This document shows, piece by piece, positions 17,661 through 53,972 of a stretch of 64,000 bases of DNA (within the stretch, counting starts at the first letter, position 1; each line of letters starts with the position of its first letter). This DNA comes from Octopus sinensis (lineage: Eukaryota): contig NC_043012.1 of NCBI RefSeq assembly GCF_006345805.1, positions 36,890,001 through 36,954,000 on the forward strand, given 5' to 3'. Below the pieces are notes generated by a model. It was not told where the DNA came from. It did not search any database and saw nothing but the letters and a program-made list of their open reading frames with translations. Both the position numbers and the translations under genes were made by a program.

Positions 17661-17663
<3 letters not shown>

Positions 17664-18226
17664 CAATAAGGGTTTAGCAACGAATTGCCTTACCACAGAC
17701 CGAATTTAGAAATAGCTTCAAAGAATTATAGCTATTTCTTCTACTAAAAAGGGAGATCTCAGTAAAAACAAGCAATTGGAAGGCAGACACAAACAGGTAA
17801 GAGAGAATGAATTGACGGCAATCTATCATACAATTTTAAGTTATCTACGGACGCACGTTTCGAAATCAAGTTTTTAGGAAAGCATAAGAATTAAATATTA
17901 AATAATTCTACCTTACCCAAACTTCTTTTCTCTTCAGCGTAGAATACTATAATCATAATGATTATATATTGAATTTTAGATACTAGAAGGCACCAACTCA
18001 ACTCAGTATCAGAGCGAGCTAGAATCCGCAACTAGTATCACCAAATTCAAAGTGTGAATGAAAAGATTGTGTCACCAGCCCCTTCCCACCCGCGTGTAGC
18101 CAAAACAAGATGCTGTGGTCATCTACTGAGATAAAATATGGTTATCCGTAATAATGAAGGGTGAAATTAATTAATTTGGAATAATTATCAATTACACCAA
18201 GTAGTCTTCGGCATGTAAAAGCCTCA

Positions 18227-18230
<4 letters not shown>
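17661..18230 (-). mobile_element. Short non-coding hammerhead-bearing element between two (TA)n tracts
   Basis: About 570 bp of unique sequence bounded by (TA)n; contains the ribozyme at 17844-17943; motif ttatccgtaataa is shared with the 41027-41438 element. Confidence 0.55.
17844..17943 (-). ncRNA. Type I hammerhead ribozyme, apparently intact
   Basis: Minus strand reads UCUACG-CUGAAGA-[69-nt stem II with GAAA/UUUC, AAGUUU/AAACUU, AGAAUUA/UAAUUCU]-GAAAC-GUGC-GUC-CGUAGA. Stem I is a perfect 6 bp and the core is fully canonical. Confidence 0.88.
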
Positions 18231-18263
<33 letters not shown>

Positions 18264-18785
18264 TTATATATATTGTAAAATCTATAAAAAGAGTACGTTG
18301 AGGTTGCTGTGAGGAGTGAATAAATCCAACGTTTCGGATAGAGTTCTTCTTCAGAGAAAATTTGAAATAAGAGAAATACCTACGTACAAACGTACACAGA
18401 CATATACAAACATGCACATTTATGTATGTGTGAGTATGTATATTATATATAGGGGAAGAATTCACAAAAATAAATTGACGAAGACAGGTGGTGTAGACAA
18501 CAAACAGATGTATTAGTATAACGCTTGGGAAGGGAAAAAGTCTTTAACGTTTTGAGCCTATGCTCTTCCACAGAAAGAAACACAGAAAGAAACGAGGAGA
18601 GAAAATATAGAATGTGTAGTGGTTAGCGATCCATCATGGCGATACGTATATACGTTTATATGTATGTGTGTGTGTGCGTGTATAAGTGTGTGTGTTTTTG
18701 TGTGTATGTGTGTGTTTATGTGAGTATCTGTGCATATATGGAATTGATTTTTTACTTATGACAGTAAATTTTACCTCGAGAAAGG

Positions 18786-19706: not shown

Positions 19707-20706
19707 TTAATCATCAATGTACTTTCCCTGATTATATATGACTTACTTCCATCTACTTACAAGCTTTTTAATCCCATCAATGTAAAACTCTTTTGGTTTC
19801 AAAGCGAAGAACTCTGAAATGCCAGGTTCGACCTCCTCCCGGCTTGCGAAAGTTGTGTATCCCTAATAATTCTGTAAACGATGAAACAAATGGTATCCTG
19901 AAGGAGTAAGGTCGGGAGAATAAGTTGGATGAAGAAATTTTTCCAAACCGACCTCTTCGATCTTCTGTGATGTGATCTTTGCAGTGTGGGGTTGCGCATT
20001 GTCCTGATGAAACATCACTCGTTTTCGACTCACTAAAGCGGCTCTTTTTTCCTTCAAAGCTTGGTTCAAACGGTCTAATTGCTGACAGTAGACTTGTGCA
20101 TTGATTGTTGCATTAGGTGGTAACAATATAAAGTGAATTACGCCTTTGCAATCGCACCAGATAGAGAGAAGAACCTTTTTCCCATGAAGTTCCCTTCTCG
20201 GTTGTGGTTGAGCATTTTCCCTTTTACCAAGCCACTGTTTACGACGTTTAACATTTCGATAGAAAATCCATTTTTCGTCACAAGTCTATTGAAAAAGGGT
20301 GAAATGAGTTTGCGAGAATGGAGAGAAGTGCAGATGTCAACTCGGGATTTGCGGTTGCTTTCGGACAATACATGAGGCACCTATTTTCCAAGTTTAGGAA
20401 AGTTTCCACGTTGTTGAAGATGACGATGAACGGTTGTATGGTTTGAAGTAAGCTTTATTGCCAATTCTTCAACTGATAACGCAGGATTTTCCTCAAGTAA
20501 TGCCTCAAGGAGCTTATCATCAGACTCAACTGGACATCCTATTCGATCTTCATCTTCAATTTTGCAAACGATCTCCTGCAAGTTCTTTCATTCAAGCACT
20601 TTCCCATAAACTGAGTGTATGTTTCGAGTCACTTCGGCTGCAGAGTTACCTTTATTATATTCATAAAGAATTATATGTGCCTTAAATGCTCCTTGGATAC
20701 TTCCAT
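19707..20706 (-). pseudogene. Mariner transposase pseudogene
   Basis: ATG at 20706; HTH-region fragments; WVPH-like motif; HQDNAQPHTAK and HPTYSPDLTPSGYHLF; ends GKYIDD*; multiple frameshifts. Confidence 0.9.
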
Positions 20707-27963: not shown

Positions 27964-29797
27964 TTAACTTATGCTTTGTATTTGTACAAGTTGGCTCGAA
28001 GTTTCACCCAGAGTTAGAAGTTCAAGTTGGTGTTATGTCTAGGGTGTCATATATTTGGTTTTGCACAGTGTTCTAGAGAATGTTTATGAAAACAAGAAAA
28101 TTACAAGTTTGTTTTAAAATTTGGGATTCCATAGACAGTATTTTACGTAGGATATAGGGAGTTCTCATGAGCACTCTCTTTTGAATTTCTGCCGTTTTTG
28201 GATTTCCTGGTATTTGAGCTAGGTAGGAATCAGACCCTTTTACTATCATACCTAGTAATAGTTATCAAACAGGTATTGTTTTAGTCTTGAGGTTCCATAT
28301 CATGCCAATTTCTATTTTAAGATCTTCATATTTGCTCAGATTTTGGTAGGTCTTGACAGATAATTTATATCGATTGGGACAGTTATATCAATGAGGAGGC
28401 ATGATTTTTGTCTGATATCCTTCAATATAATGTCTGGCCTATTCGTATCTATCCTTCTGTCAGTTTGAACGGAGAAGTTCCAGAGGAGTGAGATGTGGTC
28501 ATTTTCAAGCACAGGAGATGGTTTGTGTTCCCACCAGTTTTTATCATGGGGCAGGTCCAGGTTTTTGCAAATTACCCAGTGAATATACTGTGCTGCCCTA
28601 TCATGCCTGTTGAGATACTCTGTAGATGCAAGAAGACTACATATGGGGGCAACATGATCAATGGTTTCATTTTGTTGTTTACATACACATGTGGGGCTAC
28701 TGCCGTTCTTTAATATGTTGGCCTGGTGGCTCCTAGTACGTAGGCATTGATCTTGAGCTGCTATGATAAACCCTTCTGTTTCTGATTTTAAGCCAGAAGA
28801 CACTAAACATTGATGGGTAAGAGCTTTGTCAACATCGGCATTATTACCTCTCATTGGGTATTTGCCATTGAGAGGTTTTTCTTGCCATTTGTCAGTAAGA
28901 CATTTCTAAGGCAGCAGTTTTAGCACGGGTTTTCATACGCTTAGCTTTTTCTGTGCTTGTTTCCAGTACGTCTAATTCTGGGATTTGCTGTATTTGGAAT
29001 TCACTGAGATATTCTTTTGCCTGTTTTGTTACTGAGTATGAAGCTTTCTTTATTTTTATGCTTTAAGACAAGTTTTAACATCCAATCATCAGAATTTTTC
29101 AGGTAGGTCTTAAGGCCAATTGTGGCAATCTTCATTGTTAATTCCTGTTGTAAAAGTCCACGGCTACCCTCTTTTCTTGGCAGGTAAAATCGTTCTATAT
29201 CTGCCTTAGAGTGGTGCATTCTATGCATTGTCAACAATTTTCGTATCTTTCTGTGTAGATTACATATTTCAGTAATTGACCAGTTAATAATATTGAAACT
29301 GAAGTATTGATCGCTTCGATCCTGTTTCTTGCGTTCAGCTCTGTCTTGATTATTTCCCTTACTCTACGACAACATTCTTTTCTGATCTTTCCCTCATCAT
29401 TGAATGTTTGATTCCATCACCTTCAAATATCTCTTGGTATTTGTAGCTCTCCGCTGGTTTCTAATTCCTTTATGACATTCTGCTGGTCAAGATTAACATT
29501 GGATGTTTCTGTCATTTTTCCTTTGATAAAAGTAGCTTTTGCATACATGTAAATGAGATGATTTATATTTTTATCAAACAGTTTATAGCTAGATTGATAA
29601 TCATTGAATAATTTCGAGAGAGGTTTTAAGGCTAGACAAAAGAGGAGTGGTGATAGAGTCACCTTGGAAAATGGCACATGGAATTCTTACATCTCCAGCA
29701 TTGAGTGATTCATTGTGACTGTTCAAAGTCAGTGTGGTTCTCTATGATCTCATACTTACAGACAAGAAGTTTCGCAGAGTAGGTGCTATTTTATAAA
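27964..29797 (-). mobile_element. R4/Dong-clade non-LTR retrotransposon, 5'-truncated (RT end, CCHC knuckle, REL endonuclease, 3' UTR)
   Basis: LSPLLFCLAL; INHLIYM; HSKADIERFYLPRKEGSRGL; ETEGFIIAAQDQ; C..C...ETIDH; RHD; LWNFSVQTDR..NRPDI; IDITVP; ends ILRKILS. Confidence 0.9.
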
Positions 29798-39944: not shown

Positions 39945-40552
39945 CTCCGTCGGTTACAACGATGAGTGTCCTAGTTTATCCGATCAATGGAACAGCCTGC
40001 ACGTGAAATTAAAGTGCAAGTGGCTGAGTGCTCCACAGACACGCGTACTCTTAATGTAGTTCTCAGGGAGATTGAGTGTGAGATAATGTGACATGGTTGA
40101 CCCCTTTTGAATTACAGGTACACCTCACCTTTGCCAGCTGAGTGGACTGGAGCAACGTGAAATAAAGCGTCTTGCTCAAAGACAAAACCATCGCTAGGAA
40201 TGGAACTCACGACCTTACGATCATGAACTGAATTCCCTAACCCCTGATCCGCACACTTTCACAAGAAGTAACCCGTCAGTTACGATGACCATGGTTCTAG
40301 CTGATCCGATCAACGGAGAAGCCTGCTTCGGAAATTAATTTGAAAGTGGCTGAACACTCCGCAGACACGCGTACGCTCAATGCAATTCTCAGGGAGATTC
40401 AGCGTGACACAATGTGACATGGCTGAATTACAGGCACAGCTCATTTTGCCAGCCTAGTGGACTGGTGCAGCATGAAATAAAGTGTCTTGCTCAAGGACAC
40501 GACGCGCTGCCAGAGATCCTGAGTCAAGTTCCCTAACCAGTAAGCCATGCAT
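39945..40552 (-). mobile_element. Two tandem SINEs with the family C head/CORE but a different 3' body (C2)
   Basis: Copies at 39945-40256 and 40270-40552; gagcaacgtgaaataaag.gtcttgctcaa is the reverse complement of the CORE at ~25300; tail ctccgtcggttac...gatccgatcaa. Fragments also at 48970-49090 and 52870-52996. Confidence 0.8.
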
Positions 40553-40990
40553 CTTTACATTTCTGTACAAGAGTTACCGTTGTGCAAGCCCGATCAAGTG
40601 ATCACCGTTAACACATAAGAACCGACGTTACAAGTGAACTTTCGTATATATTGCTTTCCCCGGTCATCGACATCTACAAAGCCGTCTGAAAGATTACAAC
40701 TACACTGCTCATGGCATGCGTTTGTGCCTGTGTGAAACTCCGACTAACAACGGAGTATACTCTTCCTTAGCTTCCAGTTAAAAGATATCACAGATTTCTT
40801 CAGTCTACTGTTCCTTGCTTGCTAAAACATGGCTTGGCTCTGTCAAAGATGTTTCTTGTTACTGGAGGCCAAGCTAATCCTTACTTCGGGACTTTCCAGA
40901 ACACTTGAAAAAAAGATGTGGAGTTCTCTCTCGCTTCACATATACAGAATACTTTTGCCTTCCATTTGTACATACCAAAAGGCATATATA

Positions 40991-41026
<36 letters not shown>

Positions 41027-41032
<6 letters not shown>

Positions 41033-41435
41033 TTATAATAAAGAATGGAGCTGAACGAAGATATTTAACAAAATTCCTTTATTTATTTTCGACATATGTT
41101 TCGAAGTCTGCAAAATCCCTAATTCCGAATGAATAAGGAGTCCATTATGCAGCTTTCTCTTCAGGAAAATCCAGGAACTTCTTTCGTCAACAAAATGCAC
41201 AAGTTTTTCGATGACTTTTTCGAAACATATGTCGAAAATAAAATAAAGGAATTTTGTTAAATCTTCGTTCAGCTCCATTCTTTATTATAAAAAATTAAAC
41301 TTCAAATTTCCACACTAAGGCACGGAGTTTATGCCCTATAGTCGTAACTTCAACCGTGCTCTTTCTGTTGTGAGTTTGCTACCCAGGTATCGGTTATCTT
41401 TCGAATTATCCGTAATAAAATAATTCATTTGTCTA

Positions 41436-41438
<3 letters not shown>
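41027..41438 (-). mobile_element. Hammerhead-bearing inverted-repeat element inserted in (TA)n
   Basis: About 78-bp inverted arms at 41027-41105 and 41219-41296; (TA)n on both sides; contains the ribozyme. Confidence 0.7.
41085..41170 (-). ncRNA. Type I hammerhead ribozyme, apparently intact
   Basis: Minus strand reads AUUUUC-CUGAAGA-[55-nt stem II with GAA..CUGCA/UGCAG..UUC and AUUC/GAAU]-GAAAC-AUAU-GUC-GAAAAU. Stem I is perfect and stem III ACAUAUGU is palindromic. Confidence 0.9.
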
Positions 41439-41470
<32 letters not shown>

Positions 41471-43791
41471 TGTGTGTGTGTGTGTGTGTGTTGTGTGTGT
41501 ATGTATATGTATATGTGTGTGTGCGTGTGCGTTTATAAGTACAAGTGAATGTGTATATATGTACTTATATTACGGCATGCCATTTCTGATAGATGGAAAG
41601 TACCTAATGAGAAAGAACACCGAATAATTATGTAACGCCTTAAAGTTACGTAATATGTGTCAGGTGCACCACTTGAAACACATGTAGTGAATAACTACCT
41701 CTGCCTTACCTTTCATTCATAGACTTAATTAACGCAAAGTAAGCAACTTTTGCATAGTAACAGTTATCGGAATTTCTGCCAAATTTCGATATGGGACGAA
41801 GTGTATTGGTTGCATTGATTGGTAAAATTTATTGATTGATTATCGTCTCGTATTGCGTTATTTATACAAGCCATGTCTATGCTAGAAGATAACCAACCGT
41901 TTTTACAACGATTTAGATCTCGCTACTTTTATCTATCTTTCTGTCTGTCTGTCTAAATACATACGTATAGATGTATATGCCTGTATATATATATATATAT
42001 ATATATATACAAACAGACATATACATATATAAGTACATCAGATACAAAGTGTGGAATAAACAACATATTAATGGTTGAGGCGAATGAGGTTGTAATTGTA
42101 GCGTGTAGAATGTGAAGCAAGAAAAGGGTGAGTTGCATATTGTAATAAGGGAATTTGGAGTGTTTCGTTATAAATAGTGTGTCGAAAATGTGTAACTGAG
42201 ATAGCGTAGATATGTGGCAGCGACACACCCTGGCAATATATATTATATACATTATATATATATATATATATATAATACATTATACACACACACACACATA
42301 CATACATTTACATATACCCACATATACGCACGTATATATGTTTATATATATAGAGATATATAAGAATTTATGTTATGTTTATGTGTTTTATACACGTGTA
42401 GTTGTGTGTCTGTTTGTCAAAGTGTGCGCGCGTGTGTGCATGTGTGTTTGTGCGAGAGAGAGAGAGAGAGAAAGAGTATGTGCGCGCGCGTGTGTGTGTG
42501 TGTGTGTGTGTGTGTCTTATGTAAACATTGTTAAGTTGTGTTCCACTGATAAAGCTAATCTGAAGTATTAATCAGAAGTGACCTCGTGACGCTTGAGATA
42601 AGAAGATTACTACGCGAGGGTCGCATTACAAAGGACTTTTTACACGGCCACCATTACAGAGCACAAAACCAAGTAGACAACAGATTCCACATTCTAAAGC
42701 TGTGATAAACGGGCGGGGAAAGACAGGGTATCACTCATAAAATATAAATATTATACAAAGATAATGACAGCCTTTCTTTCTATAGTGATGCTAGCTTTTT
42801 GACTCCAAACACTGAAAACGATAAATTTCCCATACAACATACAACTATATTATCCTAGTTTTTCCTTTTTTGACTATAAAGCCGTTCAGTGTTCAATCAC
42901 TAAAATCTTATCTTTATGCCATCTAAGGTCTGGCGGTAATTTTGATGTTATGAATCACTGATATGACCTAATAAGACCGGAACACGCATAGAGTTATCCC
43001 TATAGCTGTAAAGATCAGATTTCCCCTCTTTCACTGCAGCCTCTTATCATATGCGCCCTATTTTTTTTTTTTACCGAAGTCAAATTTAAAATTTTGGTTA
43101 TGTAGTATATCCGGACGAAATACTATCACACGTAAAATATGTTTAAGGAACGAGACGCTGTCCCTAGGATAGCCTATTTATTTAATTTAAAATAATATGA
43201 CCCAATGAGGACAATTAGGATTTCAAGATGCAAATTCACCCCTTATAGAACAACTTATTTTTTTCCATGATCACTCTATATTTATTCTAACTATCATCCT
43301 AACATTAGTTATATATATTACAATTTTATTAATAACAAATAAATTTTCTTCATTAATAATTACAGAAAGTCAAAACATTGAAACAATCTGAACAATCATG
43401 CCCAGAATCATGAAAATCAAATCCTTTTAATAAAAAAAACTGGTCAAAGCTGCAGACAGAATATTTATAACTTGATGATTATGATAATGATGATGAGGAT
43501 GATAATGTAGTAGTAATGGTGGTGGTAGTTGTAGTAGTTGTAGCAGGAGTAGTAGTAGGGCAAGCAACAAGACACGTTTCAGGCCTCGGTTGGTCAACTG
43601 ACAATTGGTCGGTATATGTCTGTGCTGGTCTGAGCATTGGCGACGACGTCGAAAAATGTGGCTACGTGTCCCATGGGCAGCCTTCACATTTTTCTATCAG
43701 AACTTTTAAAACAAACTGTCACGCGTCATTATTTATAGCTTTATCTGCTTCGAGGTTCACCGTTCCTAAAAATTACACACACACACACACA

Positions 43792-45484: not shown

Positions 45485-45705
45485 TGTATATATAGTATAA
45501 TATATATATATATGTATATATATAATATATTATATATAAATTGTATATATATATATATTATATCTATATATATACATATTATAATATACAATATATATAT
45601 ATACATATTATATATATATATATATATATAGCTATATAATATATATCCATATATTATATATATATATATAATATATATATATATACATATATATATACAT
45701 ATACA

Positions 45706-46645
45706 AAGTCTCGCAGAAAATACAGAACCCCAGCAATGTTGCACACCTGCAGCAGGAGTTGGAGTCAATCTACAGATGGGCTGAGGATAATAATATGCAG
45801 TTTAATGCTGAAAAATTCCAGGCCCTGCACTACCAGCATCCAAAACTGAATATTAAACTTACAGGATACACCGGTCCACAAGGAATTTCAATCCCAGAGC
45901 CTAAGTCTGTGAGGGACCTGGGTATCAACATGAGTGATGATACCTCTTTCAAAGTGCACATTACCAGGATGGCGACAAAGTGCAGACGACTGGTTGGATG
46001 GATCCTAAGAACATTCAGAGCCAGAGATAAGGAAACCATGATGGTCCTCAGCCGCCTGGATTACTGCTCACAGCTATGGTCACCTATCAGTGTAAAATTA
46101 ACAGCGGACCTTGAAGCAATCCAGAGAAGATTCACAAAGATCGTCTCTTTGGAACAGCTCAGCTACTGGGAAAGGTTGAAACAGCTAAGACTCTACTCCT
46201 TAGAGAGAAGACGGGAGAGGTATGCAGTAATATATGTCTGGAATATCCTGGAAGGAATTGTGCCAAATTTTGGCATTGTAAGCTACACCAATGCTAGAAC
46301 GGGACGACACTGCATAGTGCCAAAGATCCCAGCAATGCGATCACGCTTCAGGACCAGCTTCTGCAACAGCCTGGTTTCAGGACCCACAGCTTTTAATATT
46401 CTCCCAAAGCGTTTGAGGAACTGCACAAAGTAGAGTAGATGTAGCAGAGTTTTTAAATCAAAGCTGGACATCTTCCTGTCGAGAGTTCCAGATGAACCTA
46501 CCTCACGGCAAGAGGTGCAAATGAGAGTAGCTATGTCAAACTCCATTCTTCACAAGTGCCACATATTAGAGGAGGTTCTTCATAGTAGCAGTGTAACACA
46601 AAACGGCGGTGCATCAGCATGGTCGCAGCTCTGAGCTGAAACAAG

Positions 46646-48529: not shown

Positions 48530-49094
48530 GCTACGATAAAAATAGTTCGATGTGATAATAAATTATGGTAAGGAGTGAGAGAGGTTGTGTGGTGGTTGTG
48601 GTGGTTGTGGTGGTGGTGGTGGTGGTGGTTGTGGTTGTAGTGGGGCTGTTGAAAAATTTAACGAGACTTCGGTCAAGTGGAAAGATAGAAGAGATGATAA
48701 GAAACATTTTTTTAGGGATGTTCACGGATGGAAGTAATTAATGAGTTACATAAATACAAAACTGGAAAAACAAGAGAGATATATCTTCTGTTCAAATAGA
48801 AGATATATGATGGAGCGGAATAAATAATTGCTGAGAGATAAGAACGATAAATAGATTATAAGGAAGATGACGGGGCGAAATCTAGAAGGAAAATATTTCA
48901 TTTGGTTTTTGTCGGCGACCATGATATTTCAGTTGGTCGGTCGGAGAAACAACCAGATTAATTAATTTTGTGTGTAAGTAGCTGAATACTCCACAGATTC
49001 CAGTCTTGTGTACTCTTAAATGTAATTCTAAAGCCGAATCAGAATGTGACAGAATGTGTGAGAAGGTCGACGCTTTCGAATTACGATGGTGCCT

Positions 49095-49325
49095 ATTTCT
49101 TTATTACCCACAAGGGGCTAAACATAGAGAGGACAAACAAGGACAGACATAGGTATTAAGTCGATTACATCGACCCCAGTGCGGAACTGGTACTTAATTT
49201 ATCGACACCGAAAGGATGAAAGGCAAAGTCAACCTCGGCGGAATTTGAACTCACAACGTAACGGCAGACGAAATACCGCGAAGTATTTCATCCGGCGTGC
49301 TAACGTTTCTGCCAGCTCGCCGCCT
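49095..49325 (-). mobile_element. SINE family A, full length with TSD
   Basis: Flanked by a repeated tttcgaattacgatggt(g/a)cc at about 49074 and 49325. Confidence 0.92.
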
Positions 49326-49658
49326 TTCGAATTACGATGGTACCGCCGGGATGTGACTTGAAGCTGCATTCGCTGATGGAGTTCTGGTTGGGGAGCTCCA
49401 GAGTTTCGAGAAGCTGTGGTACCTTTTATTAGCCCCGCCCCACTCCGGGTCAACTCTGACTCGCAGTAGGATGAGTAACATCTGTTAGGGTCCCAACTAT
49501 GGATTAATTAGCATGTCACGGAATTCCCTCCGTAAGGAGGTTCACTCACGCACATCTCAGTGAGCCCAGGGTGAAAGAGGCCCTTCAGTTCTTCAGCCGT
49601 CCATCTAAGAAAAGTTAACTTCATGCAACCACTGGGCTCATGGTACTTGATGCATCAA

Positions 49659-49891
49659 AAGGCAGCGAGCTGGCTGAAGCATTAGCACGCCGGGCGAAAT
49701 GCTTAGCAGTATTTCCTCTGCCGCTACGTTCTGAGTTCAAATTCCGCCAAGGTCAACTTTGCCTTTCATCATTTCGGGGTCGATTAAATTAGTACCAGTT
49801 ACGCACTGGGGTCGATATAATCGACTTAATCCGTTTGTCTGTCCTTGTTTGTCCTCTCTGTGTTTAGCCCCTTGTGGGTAGTAAAGAAATA
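49659..49891 (+). mobile_element. SINE family A, full length with TSD
   Basis: Flanked by ggtacttgatgca at about 49642 and 49892. Confidence 0.92.
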
Positions 49892-50366
49892 GGTACTTGA
49901 TGCACCTAACCAATACAAGTTTGAAGGACGTGAGAGCCGGACTGTCAGCACTGGATTAACTATTGCCCACTCTAATAATATTTATCGTTCAGATTGATTA
50001 GCAAACCGAGACACCAACACGCAGCTGGGTCCTGCTGAACTGTCATTCGTCGAAGTGACGAGAAAGTTCACCATAAAAATGGGCTTCTGCACAATTTCCA
50101 TTTCCCACAAATCATTCACACAATATAGGTCAACACGAAGTTATGTTTTGCCCAAGATGTCACGCAACAGAATCGAAAGCAGAACATCATGGTTACACAG
50201 GAGACATCTTAAACATTTATTTATTTTGGTTTTGTGAAAAAATGTGCTTTAGCCACAAATTCGCCTGGATCGAGTAGATCAATGAAAACAGTCGTTCCAT
50301 CCGTGTCCATTTCGTCTTTTTATTCTCGATGTTGCAAAATATCGGGTAGCGAAGTATAGAAATCGC

Positions 50367-52996: not shown

Positions 52997-53096
52997 NNNN
53001 NNNNNNNNNNNNNNNNNNNNNNNNNNNNNNNNNNNNNNNNNNNNNNNNNNNNNNNNNNNNNNNNNNNNNNNNNNNNNNNNNNNNNNNNNNNNNNNN
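52997..53096. other. Assembly gap (100 N)
   Basis: Run of 100 Ns. Confidence 1.
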
Positions 53097-53662: not shown

Positions 53663-53677
53663 ATATATATATTATAT

Positions 53678-53972
53678 TACAAATAAGAAATGGAGGAATA
53701 GATTCATTTCAATCATCGACTTACAGATATTACCAATTCATATGAATTGGGTAATATCTGTAAGTCGATGATTGAAATGAATTTGTCCTCCATTTTTATT
53801 TGTATTATGAATTTGAGGTAAACTATTTTACCTTCGCCATATAATACATAAATGAATTAATTGCATTGCAATTATAAGCATTTATGTATTTGGCATTGGG
53901 TGCTTCACCAGCATATATATGGATAACTGATATCCATAGTGGGTTACACTCATAACCCCTATCTCACTTTGT
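53678..53972. repeat. Multi-hairpin element in (TA)n with a ~127-bp near-perfect palindrome
   Basis: Palindrome at 53678-53804 centred on ttcat|atgaa, followed by four smaller stem-loops. Confidence 0.85.

Follow-up and report, generated by a model that had tools for sequence, protein, structure and literature searches.

Structure of the insert

Analysis of the window, the whole stretch of 64 kb of Octopus sinensis DNA under study, located an insert of about 410 bases (41026-41437) in AT-rich, microsatellite-dense surroundings. The insert is flanked on both sides by (TA)n tracts, read directly from the sequence: the left tract (40984-41027) is the putative insertion target and the right tract occupies 41438-41468. 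No second copy of the insert's family was found in the 64-kb window.

Two pieces of one repeat, each truncated at its 5' end, make up the insert in a head-to-head arrangement. The left piece (41026-41216, minus strand) is a 5'-truncated 3' end of the repeat: read in minus-strand sense, from about 41216 to 41026, it carries upstream sequence, a whole hammerhead motif and 59 more bases, and its short 3' end runs into the (TA)n tract. Contigs of the same family match this piece as far as 41202, and some as far as 41216. The right piece, read in plus-strand sense (41219-41437), begins inside the hammerhead at TTCGAA and continues through 79 bases shared with the left piece and then through 140 more.

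Alignment of the reverse complement of 41026-41105 (left arm, 80 nt, minus strand) with 41219-41297 (right arm, 79 nt, plus strand, cut within the hammerhead) gave 78 matches, 0 mismatches and 3 gap columns; the arms differ by two indels only, one of 1 bp and one of 2 bp. The near-perfect reverse-complement arms proposed in an earlier note on this DNA, at 41027-41105 and 41219-41296, were therefore confirmed and found to extend one base further on each side. The 78-bp inverted repeat exists because both pieces share that stretch, and is simply the overlap of the two. Between the arms lies a spacer of 113 bp (41106-41218), which holds the 5' part of the hammerhead and the sequence upstream from it and belongs to the left piece only. 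The right piece alone has the long-tail 3' extension of 140 bp (41298-41437, plus strand), and the continuity from arm to tail is spanned by divergent contigs. The head-to-head junction (41213-41224), with the palindrome TTCGAA at its end, contains a 5-nt microhomology, judged by eye, and a longer T run, which together are a possible point of joining.

The hammerhead motif

A type I hammerhead motif was identified by descriptor match on the minus strand at 41085-41170, 65 nt and 205 nt upstream from the two 3' ends of the insert. It comprises a stem I of 6 Watson-Crick base pairs (41170-41165 with 41090-41085), the core CUGAAGA (41164-41158), the pair G10.1-C11.1, a stem II domain of 55 nt (41157-41103), the GAAA element (41102-41099), a 2-bp stem III with an AUAU loop, together an 8-nt palindrome (41099-41092), and a GUC site with predicted cleavage 3' of C17 (41091). 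The type I descriptor matched twice in the window (41085-41170 and 17844-17943). In 100 dinucleotide-preserving shuffles of the window the mean was 0.03 matches, and none reached two.

The last 21 nt of the hammerhead fall inside the left arm, and the same 21 nt are found on the plus strand in the right arm (41219-41239). This agrees with the earlier proposal that the left arm overlaps the catalytic 3' half and that the right arm is its antisense copy.

Stem I may be extended beyond an internal loop by predicted pairing of 41181-41173 with 41070-41078 (41070-41181, minus strand), in which 9 of 9 positions pair; shifting the register by +1 or -1 left 7 or 6 of the 9 pairs. In the insert this internal loop is enlarged by 4-5 extra bases which, judging from contigs, are often absent from other copies. 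Seven variable places were listed for the stem II domain (41103-41157) among family contigs: five restore or strengthen pairs that are broken or weak in the insert, and the remaining two fall in the terminal loop. None of the variable places listed falls in the core or in stem I. The stem II variants are one-sided changes whose shares differ between runs, and one register was picked by hand; with these features they provide no more than moderate support for conservation of the long stem II across copies of the family. As judged from sequence, the core of the hammerhead is intact and its periphery is eroded relative to other family copies.

Rfam did not match the hammerhead at the gathering score, nor at E values up to 10 (none of 13 matches), for which the long stem II may be the reason. 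The description of the motif as an intact hammerhead holds for the core and not for the peripheral stems. As a tentative suggestion, hammerheads with so long a stem II may escape both Rfam and the published descriptors and be widely missed.

Predicted folding of transcripts

RNA folding of 41026-41300 on the minus strand gave -125.9 kcal/mol (z -18), a value equalled by none of 200 shuffles. With both arms present, the predicted ddG relative to the fold containing stems I and II was 26.7 kcal/mol, and it was 18.4 kcal/mol at the point where transcription has just cleared stem I. When the arm was left out, the share of stems I and II in the ensemble was put at 0.1-0.5%, with a ddG of 3-4 kcal/mol, in predictions that leave out tertiary contacts and dimers. 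The proposal that the upstream arm sequesters the 3' half of the hammerhead in minus-strand RNA is upheld as a prediction by the gap of 26.7 kcal/mol. The hairpin is predicted to hold the hammerhead off in any read-through RNA, as a lock and not as a switch, because a gap of about 27 kcal/mol leaves no second state within reach. The insert copy is predicted to have no regulatory role.

In plus-strand read-through RNA the half motif was predicted to pair with the left arm (probability of being unpaired, 0.00-0.01), and it would be free only when transcription begins within the 113-bp spacer. The plus-strand half-ribozyme described earlier is present as a 3' half at 41219-41239, but is buried in read-through RNA.

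Two functional readings of the arrangement were weighed. One makes it a built-in conformational switch, or else a brake on the hammerhead maintained by selection. In its favour, minus-strand transcription reaches the antisense arm before the hammerhead, and pairing of this arm with the catalytic 3' half is predicted. Against this, the two states lie about 27 kcal/mol apart with no competing fold nearby, stems I and II reach only a minute share of the ensemble even when the arm is removed, and none of the eight other joints listed below has both a whole hammerhead and an overlying arm. Moreover, stem II of the insert copy is eroded, and hammerheads with a short stem III are reported to be inactive as monomers in PMC4209133. 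We consider the switch extremely improbable. In the other reading the plus-strand half-ribozyme meets complete copies by way of the 8-nt palindrome and works in trans. For a free half this is possible chemically: all 14 intermolecular pairs are Watson-Crick, and the trans fold was predicted at -24.3 kcal/mol, as compared with -19.6 kcal/mol for the strands apart. The best predicted cofold is a different structure (-27.0 kcal/mol), however, the half is bound by the left arm in read-through RNA, and it would serve as the substrate strand, the same half being available from any other copy of the family. Action in trans is accordingly regarded as very unlikely. None of the papers listed in a literature search deals, by title or abstract, with a retrotransposon hammerhead under the control of an antisense switch.

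Copies of the family in public sequencing runs

Logan contigs of four runs (X1, X2, X3 and X5), chosen from 24 listed and representing at most four samples and three studies, were aligned to 41020-41444 at 80% likeness. The numbers of contigs aligned were 757, 1049, 513 and 1014, respectively, most of them 90-99% alike; for X1, 140 contigs were at least 99% alike, 176 were 95-99%, 276 were 90-95% and 165 were below 90%. Summed contig depth, which is not equal to copy number, was 1e4-7e5 on both halves of the insert. In all four runs a trough was found in the bin at the junction (41200-41214), where depth was 3,397 for X1, 1,254 for X2, 465 for X3 and 5,123 for X5. The depth on both halves together with this trough indicates that the halves come from a very common repeat and that the junction is not a shared feature of the family. 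The use of depth ratios as copy numbers was dropped, depth being unsuited to this purpose.

At least eight other antisense/sense head-to-head joints were listed in the contigs, each with a different breakpoint and with depths of 4-91: 41084>41217, 41103>41243, 41104>41348, 41106>41219, 41112>41240, 41153>41375, 41171>41331 and 41196>41297. Filler letters are listed for six of these eight, and one joint recurs, its 7 filler letters unchanged, in two runs from two studies. Four of the eight run straight into the tail. Two retain the whole hammerhead with no arm over it, and four have overlapping arms and no whole hammerhead. The junction of the window equals none of the eight, and it was bridged by none of the 32 contig pieces listed, besides which there are 3326 more. 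The question raised in the earlier note, whether other copies keep the same arrangement and breakpoint, is answered in the negative for these joints.

The sides of the joints are 20-30 letters long and their outer ends lie outside the contigs, so the joints cannot separate twin priming from fold-back. For the same reason, non-overlapping joints were dropped as proof of twin priming.

Many contigs, in all four runs, stop matching the reference at 41279-41283 and go on as AT/TA-rich loose ends, with 39, 19, 23 and 39 contigs doing so at 41283. Either a short 3' end that is common in the family or a variable TA tract inside the repeat would fit this pattern.

Of the 24 listed runs, 7 contained at least half of the words of 40540-41960, which is not proof of the junction; no RNA run was listed as containing the region, and six possible RNA runs had small shares of these words (0.06-0.10). 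A metagenome scan with a 24-nt motif gave no match. With a 17-nt motif, 117 loci were obtained; BLAST of these against the insert yielded 8 matches, of 38 nt at most, which were taken as chance.

Comparison with known elements

The insert shares with Penelope-like elements a type I hammerhead near the 3' end, variable 5' truncation with an inverted truncated copy, and a (TA)n target. On these non-coding features, membership of the Penelope-like class is likely. None of the 150 open frames scanned with Pfam (266 passed the filter) matched a domain of Penelope-like elements (RT or GIY-YIG), and the absence of such a frame at the locus is expected because the insert is a remnant of 410 bp.

The closest likeness is to the EN+ Penelope-like elements with a (TA)n preference (the Hydra clade, with Penelope-13_HM and Hydra-1_Obim, and the Neptune type). 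Like the insert, these have (TA)n targets and 5' truncation, and carry at the 5' end an inverted copy that is itself 5'-truncated. Hammerhead sequence occurs on both strands, and a type I hammerhead with the CUGAAGA core variant lies at a distance of roughly 90-210 nt from the 3' end. The extension at one end only may be comparable; it measures 140 bp in the insert and 30-40 bp in the published elements. PMC8557442 describes the inverted 5'-truncated copy at the 5' end, the tail of 30-40 bp at one end and the (TA)n targets, and its supplement describes Penelope-13_HM with an inverted 5'-truncated copy and hammerheads on both strands. The insert differs from these elements in having no ORF, in that its inverted partner is cut inside the hammerhead, and in its stem II domain, of 55 nt as against the short hairpins in the published table. 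The core search in PMC8557442 allowed a spacer of 7-17 nt, and would miss the motif of the insert. Motif searches of the available text of two published supplements found no consensus with the insert sequence, in files whose line breaks could hide a match.

Inverted pLTRs of Penelope from Adineta vaga and Drosophila virilis resemble the insert in the head-to-head repeat, in the palindrome at the junction and in the tail carried by one inverted unit; self-priming was proposed for them in PMC3846280. The insert differs from them in that only two ends remain and the target-site duplication is unreadable within (TA)n. Inverted pLTRs are listed as a known peculiarity in PMC8969392. The earlier statement that Penelope insertions often carry partial inverted copies is matched by all these descriptions (PMC8557442, PMC3846280 and PMC8969392).

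The metazoan type I hammerheads with minimal helix III described in PMC4209133 share with the insert the core, G10.1-C11.1, a 2-bp helix III, a palindromic loop suited to a dimeric fold, and opposite-strand pairs, which in that report lie 100-700 bp apart. The insert has a far longer helix II and a possible, predicted extension of helix I. For the one minimal motif tested, PMC4209133 reports no monomer activity. PMC11167929 describes cleavage and extension of both target strands and two internal RT start sites; a dimer was predicted there, and hammerhead cleavage was not needed in vitro. Penelope-like elements make up 6.83% of the Octopus vulgaris genome according to PMC13282606. Non-LTR retrozymes (bioRxiv 10.64898/2026.07.22.740005) are also short non-coding units with a type I hammerhead and kinship to Penelope-like pLTRs, but form head-to-tail tandem repeats, whereas the insert is head to head with one complete motif, an arrangement that does not fit a non-LTR retrozyme.

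Origin of the insert

The insert consists of two 5'-truncated 3'-end pieces of a high-copy hammerhead repeat, probably laid down in one Penelope-like retrotransposition event as an ordinary by-product. The suggestion in the earlier note that the arrangement is a by-product of Penelope insertion is favoured by the anatomy, by the eight other joints with their different breakpoints and by the published descriptions, all of which fit. The arms carry no substitution while family contigs are mostly 90-99% alike, which suggests that both arms derive from one template in one event.

In LINE-1 twin priming, two primers on opposite target strands give rise to a 5' piece that is inverted and joined at a microhomology. 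An analogous course may be proposed for the insert. Once the element endonuclease had cut the (TA)n tract on both strands, reverse transcription would be primed by one cut strand at the distal 3' start site (41437) and by the other 140 nt upstream, at a proximal site (41026/41297). Each cDNA would end early, at a different point, and the two would then be joined by short homology. LINE-1 5' inversions belong to a different class of retroelement; in the insert, moreover, the two pieces have about 80 bp in common, and each end lies within (TA)n. None of the papers listed in a literature search for twin priming with Penelope was on the mechanism of Penelope-like elements.

A Penelope-like origin could also be combined with another route to the inversion, namely fold-back self-priming, a template switch of a single cDNA, or an antisense template. 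The palindrome at the junction is compatible with fold-back, PMC3846280 explains such junctions by self-priming, and the window itself contains a pure fold-back palindrome (53674-53808). Yet the spacer lies on the short-ended piece and the tail on the other, an asymmetry for which fold-back of a single cDNA needs later deletion of the left tail or a second template, and twin priming is favoured for this reason. The internal TA-rich site at 41284-41297 would make a subsequent loss of the left tail possible, and we regard these routes as a real but lesser possibility. An assembly or library fold-back artefact could account for the fact that the junction was not bridged by any listed contig piece and for the low or zero depth on the outer left arm in two of the four runs. 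The low depth there is explained by the assignment of any contig matching both arms to only one of them. Two indels separate the arms, the 113 bp between them is family sequence, their ends are asymmetric, and comparable junctions occur in all four runs, all of which speaks against an artefact and renders it very unlikely. Finally, an inverted repeat with a TA flank at the left might suggest that a MITE or fold-back DNA transposon, bounded by 78-bp terminal inverted repeats, has inserted at TA. Since the right arm is internal, with 140 bp more of family sequence beyond it, since the depth trough at the junction indicates that the family does not have this unit in common, and in view of the hammerhead content, such an element is hardly credible. 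The reading as a by-product of Penelope-like retrotransposition, with twin priming as the favoured route, is retained.

A further suggestion, which we make tentatively and hold to be doubtful, is that the structure or cleavage of the ribozyme sets the sites of inversion, through two start sites 140 nt apart and stalling of cDNA at the 3' edge of the hammerhead. With the insert locus included, a stretch of about 30 nt at this edge contains 10 of 18 truncation points, a proportion biased by the choice of reference.

The single locus matters little, being one scar among many of a common retrotransposon, and these results correct the tempting reading of it as a ribozyme switch. If the tentative suggestion on the sites of inversion is true, the family would be a bulk record of Penelope twin priming. 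In a genome with many such junctions, twin priming and self-priming could be decided between by counting, as could the relation of breakpoints to the hammerhead. PMC8557442 names the formation of tandem and inverted structures by Penelope-like elements as an open question.

Other repeats in the window

A locus at 53674-53971, likewise bordered by (TA)n tracts, is laid out like the insert but lacks a hammerhead core; its extension, of about 160 bp, is on one side only. Its palindrome of about 135 bp is centred on CATATG (53738-53743), with 62 matches, 3 mismatches and 5 gap columns. The distances from CATATG to the shared CTCCAT motif and to the short end are +49 and +73, as compared with +47/48 and +71 in the insert.

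Solo hammerhead-type ends adjoining (TA)n were found at 4518-4628 and 17844-17943. The latter, on the minus strand, has a 6-bp stem I, a long stem II and a fold near the hammerhead shape; it is the second type I motif of the window and lies in a 568-bp insert of a different family between (TA)n tracts (17662-18229). At 4440-4628 there is a degraded hammerhead-type motif (4518-4599, plus strand) with a long stem II and the same loop palindrome, and the CTCCAT motif of this locus directly precedes a long (TA)n tract. More short repeats with hammerhead-like remnants, recognized by eye, lie beside TA-rich tracts at 18273-18380 and 18440-18620.

The window has two assembly gaps of 100 N (14133-14232 and 52997-53096). 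A bacterial promoter scan gave 2 sites, against 1.8 expected by chance, with a bacterial model unsuited to an animal genome. Mariner transposase was the sole type of curated-level Pfam match among the 150 frames scanned of 266, in a fragment at 19866-20285 (minus strand; PF01359, E 1.9e-26). Frames at 28336-29363 (minus strand) and 45672-46433 (plus strand) resemble remnants of non-LTR retrotransposons by eye and had no Pfam match. A 567-bp element between (TA)n tracts at 60090-60685, with terminal inverted repeats of about 30 bp, is a mariner-like MITE by appearance. Inverted SINE-like copies at 49089-49330 and 49655-49896, 324 bp apart, are 88% identical over 242 bp; they are likely two separate insertions, each apparently with its own short direct repeat.
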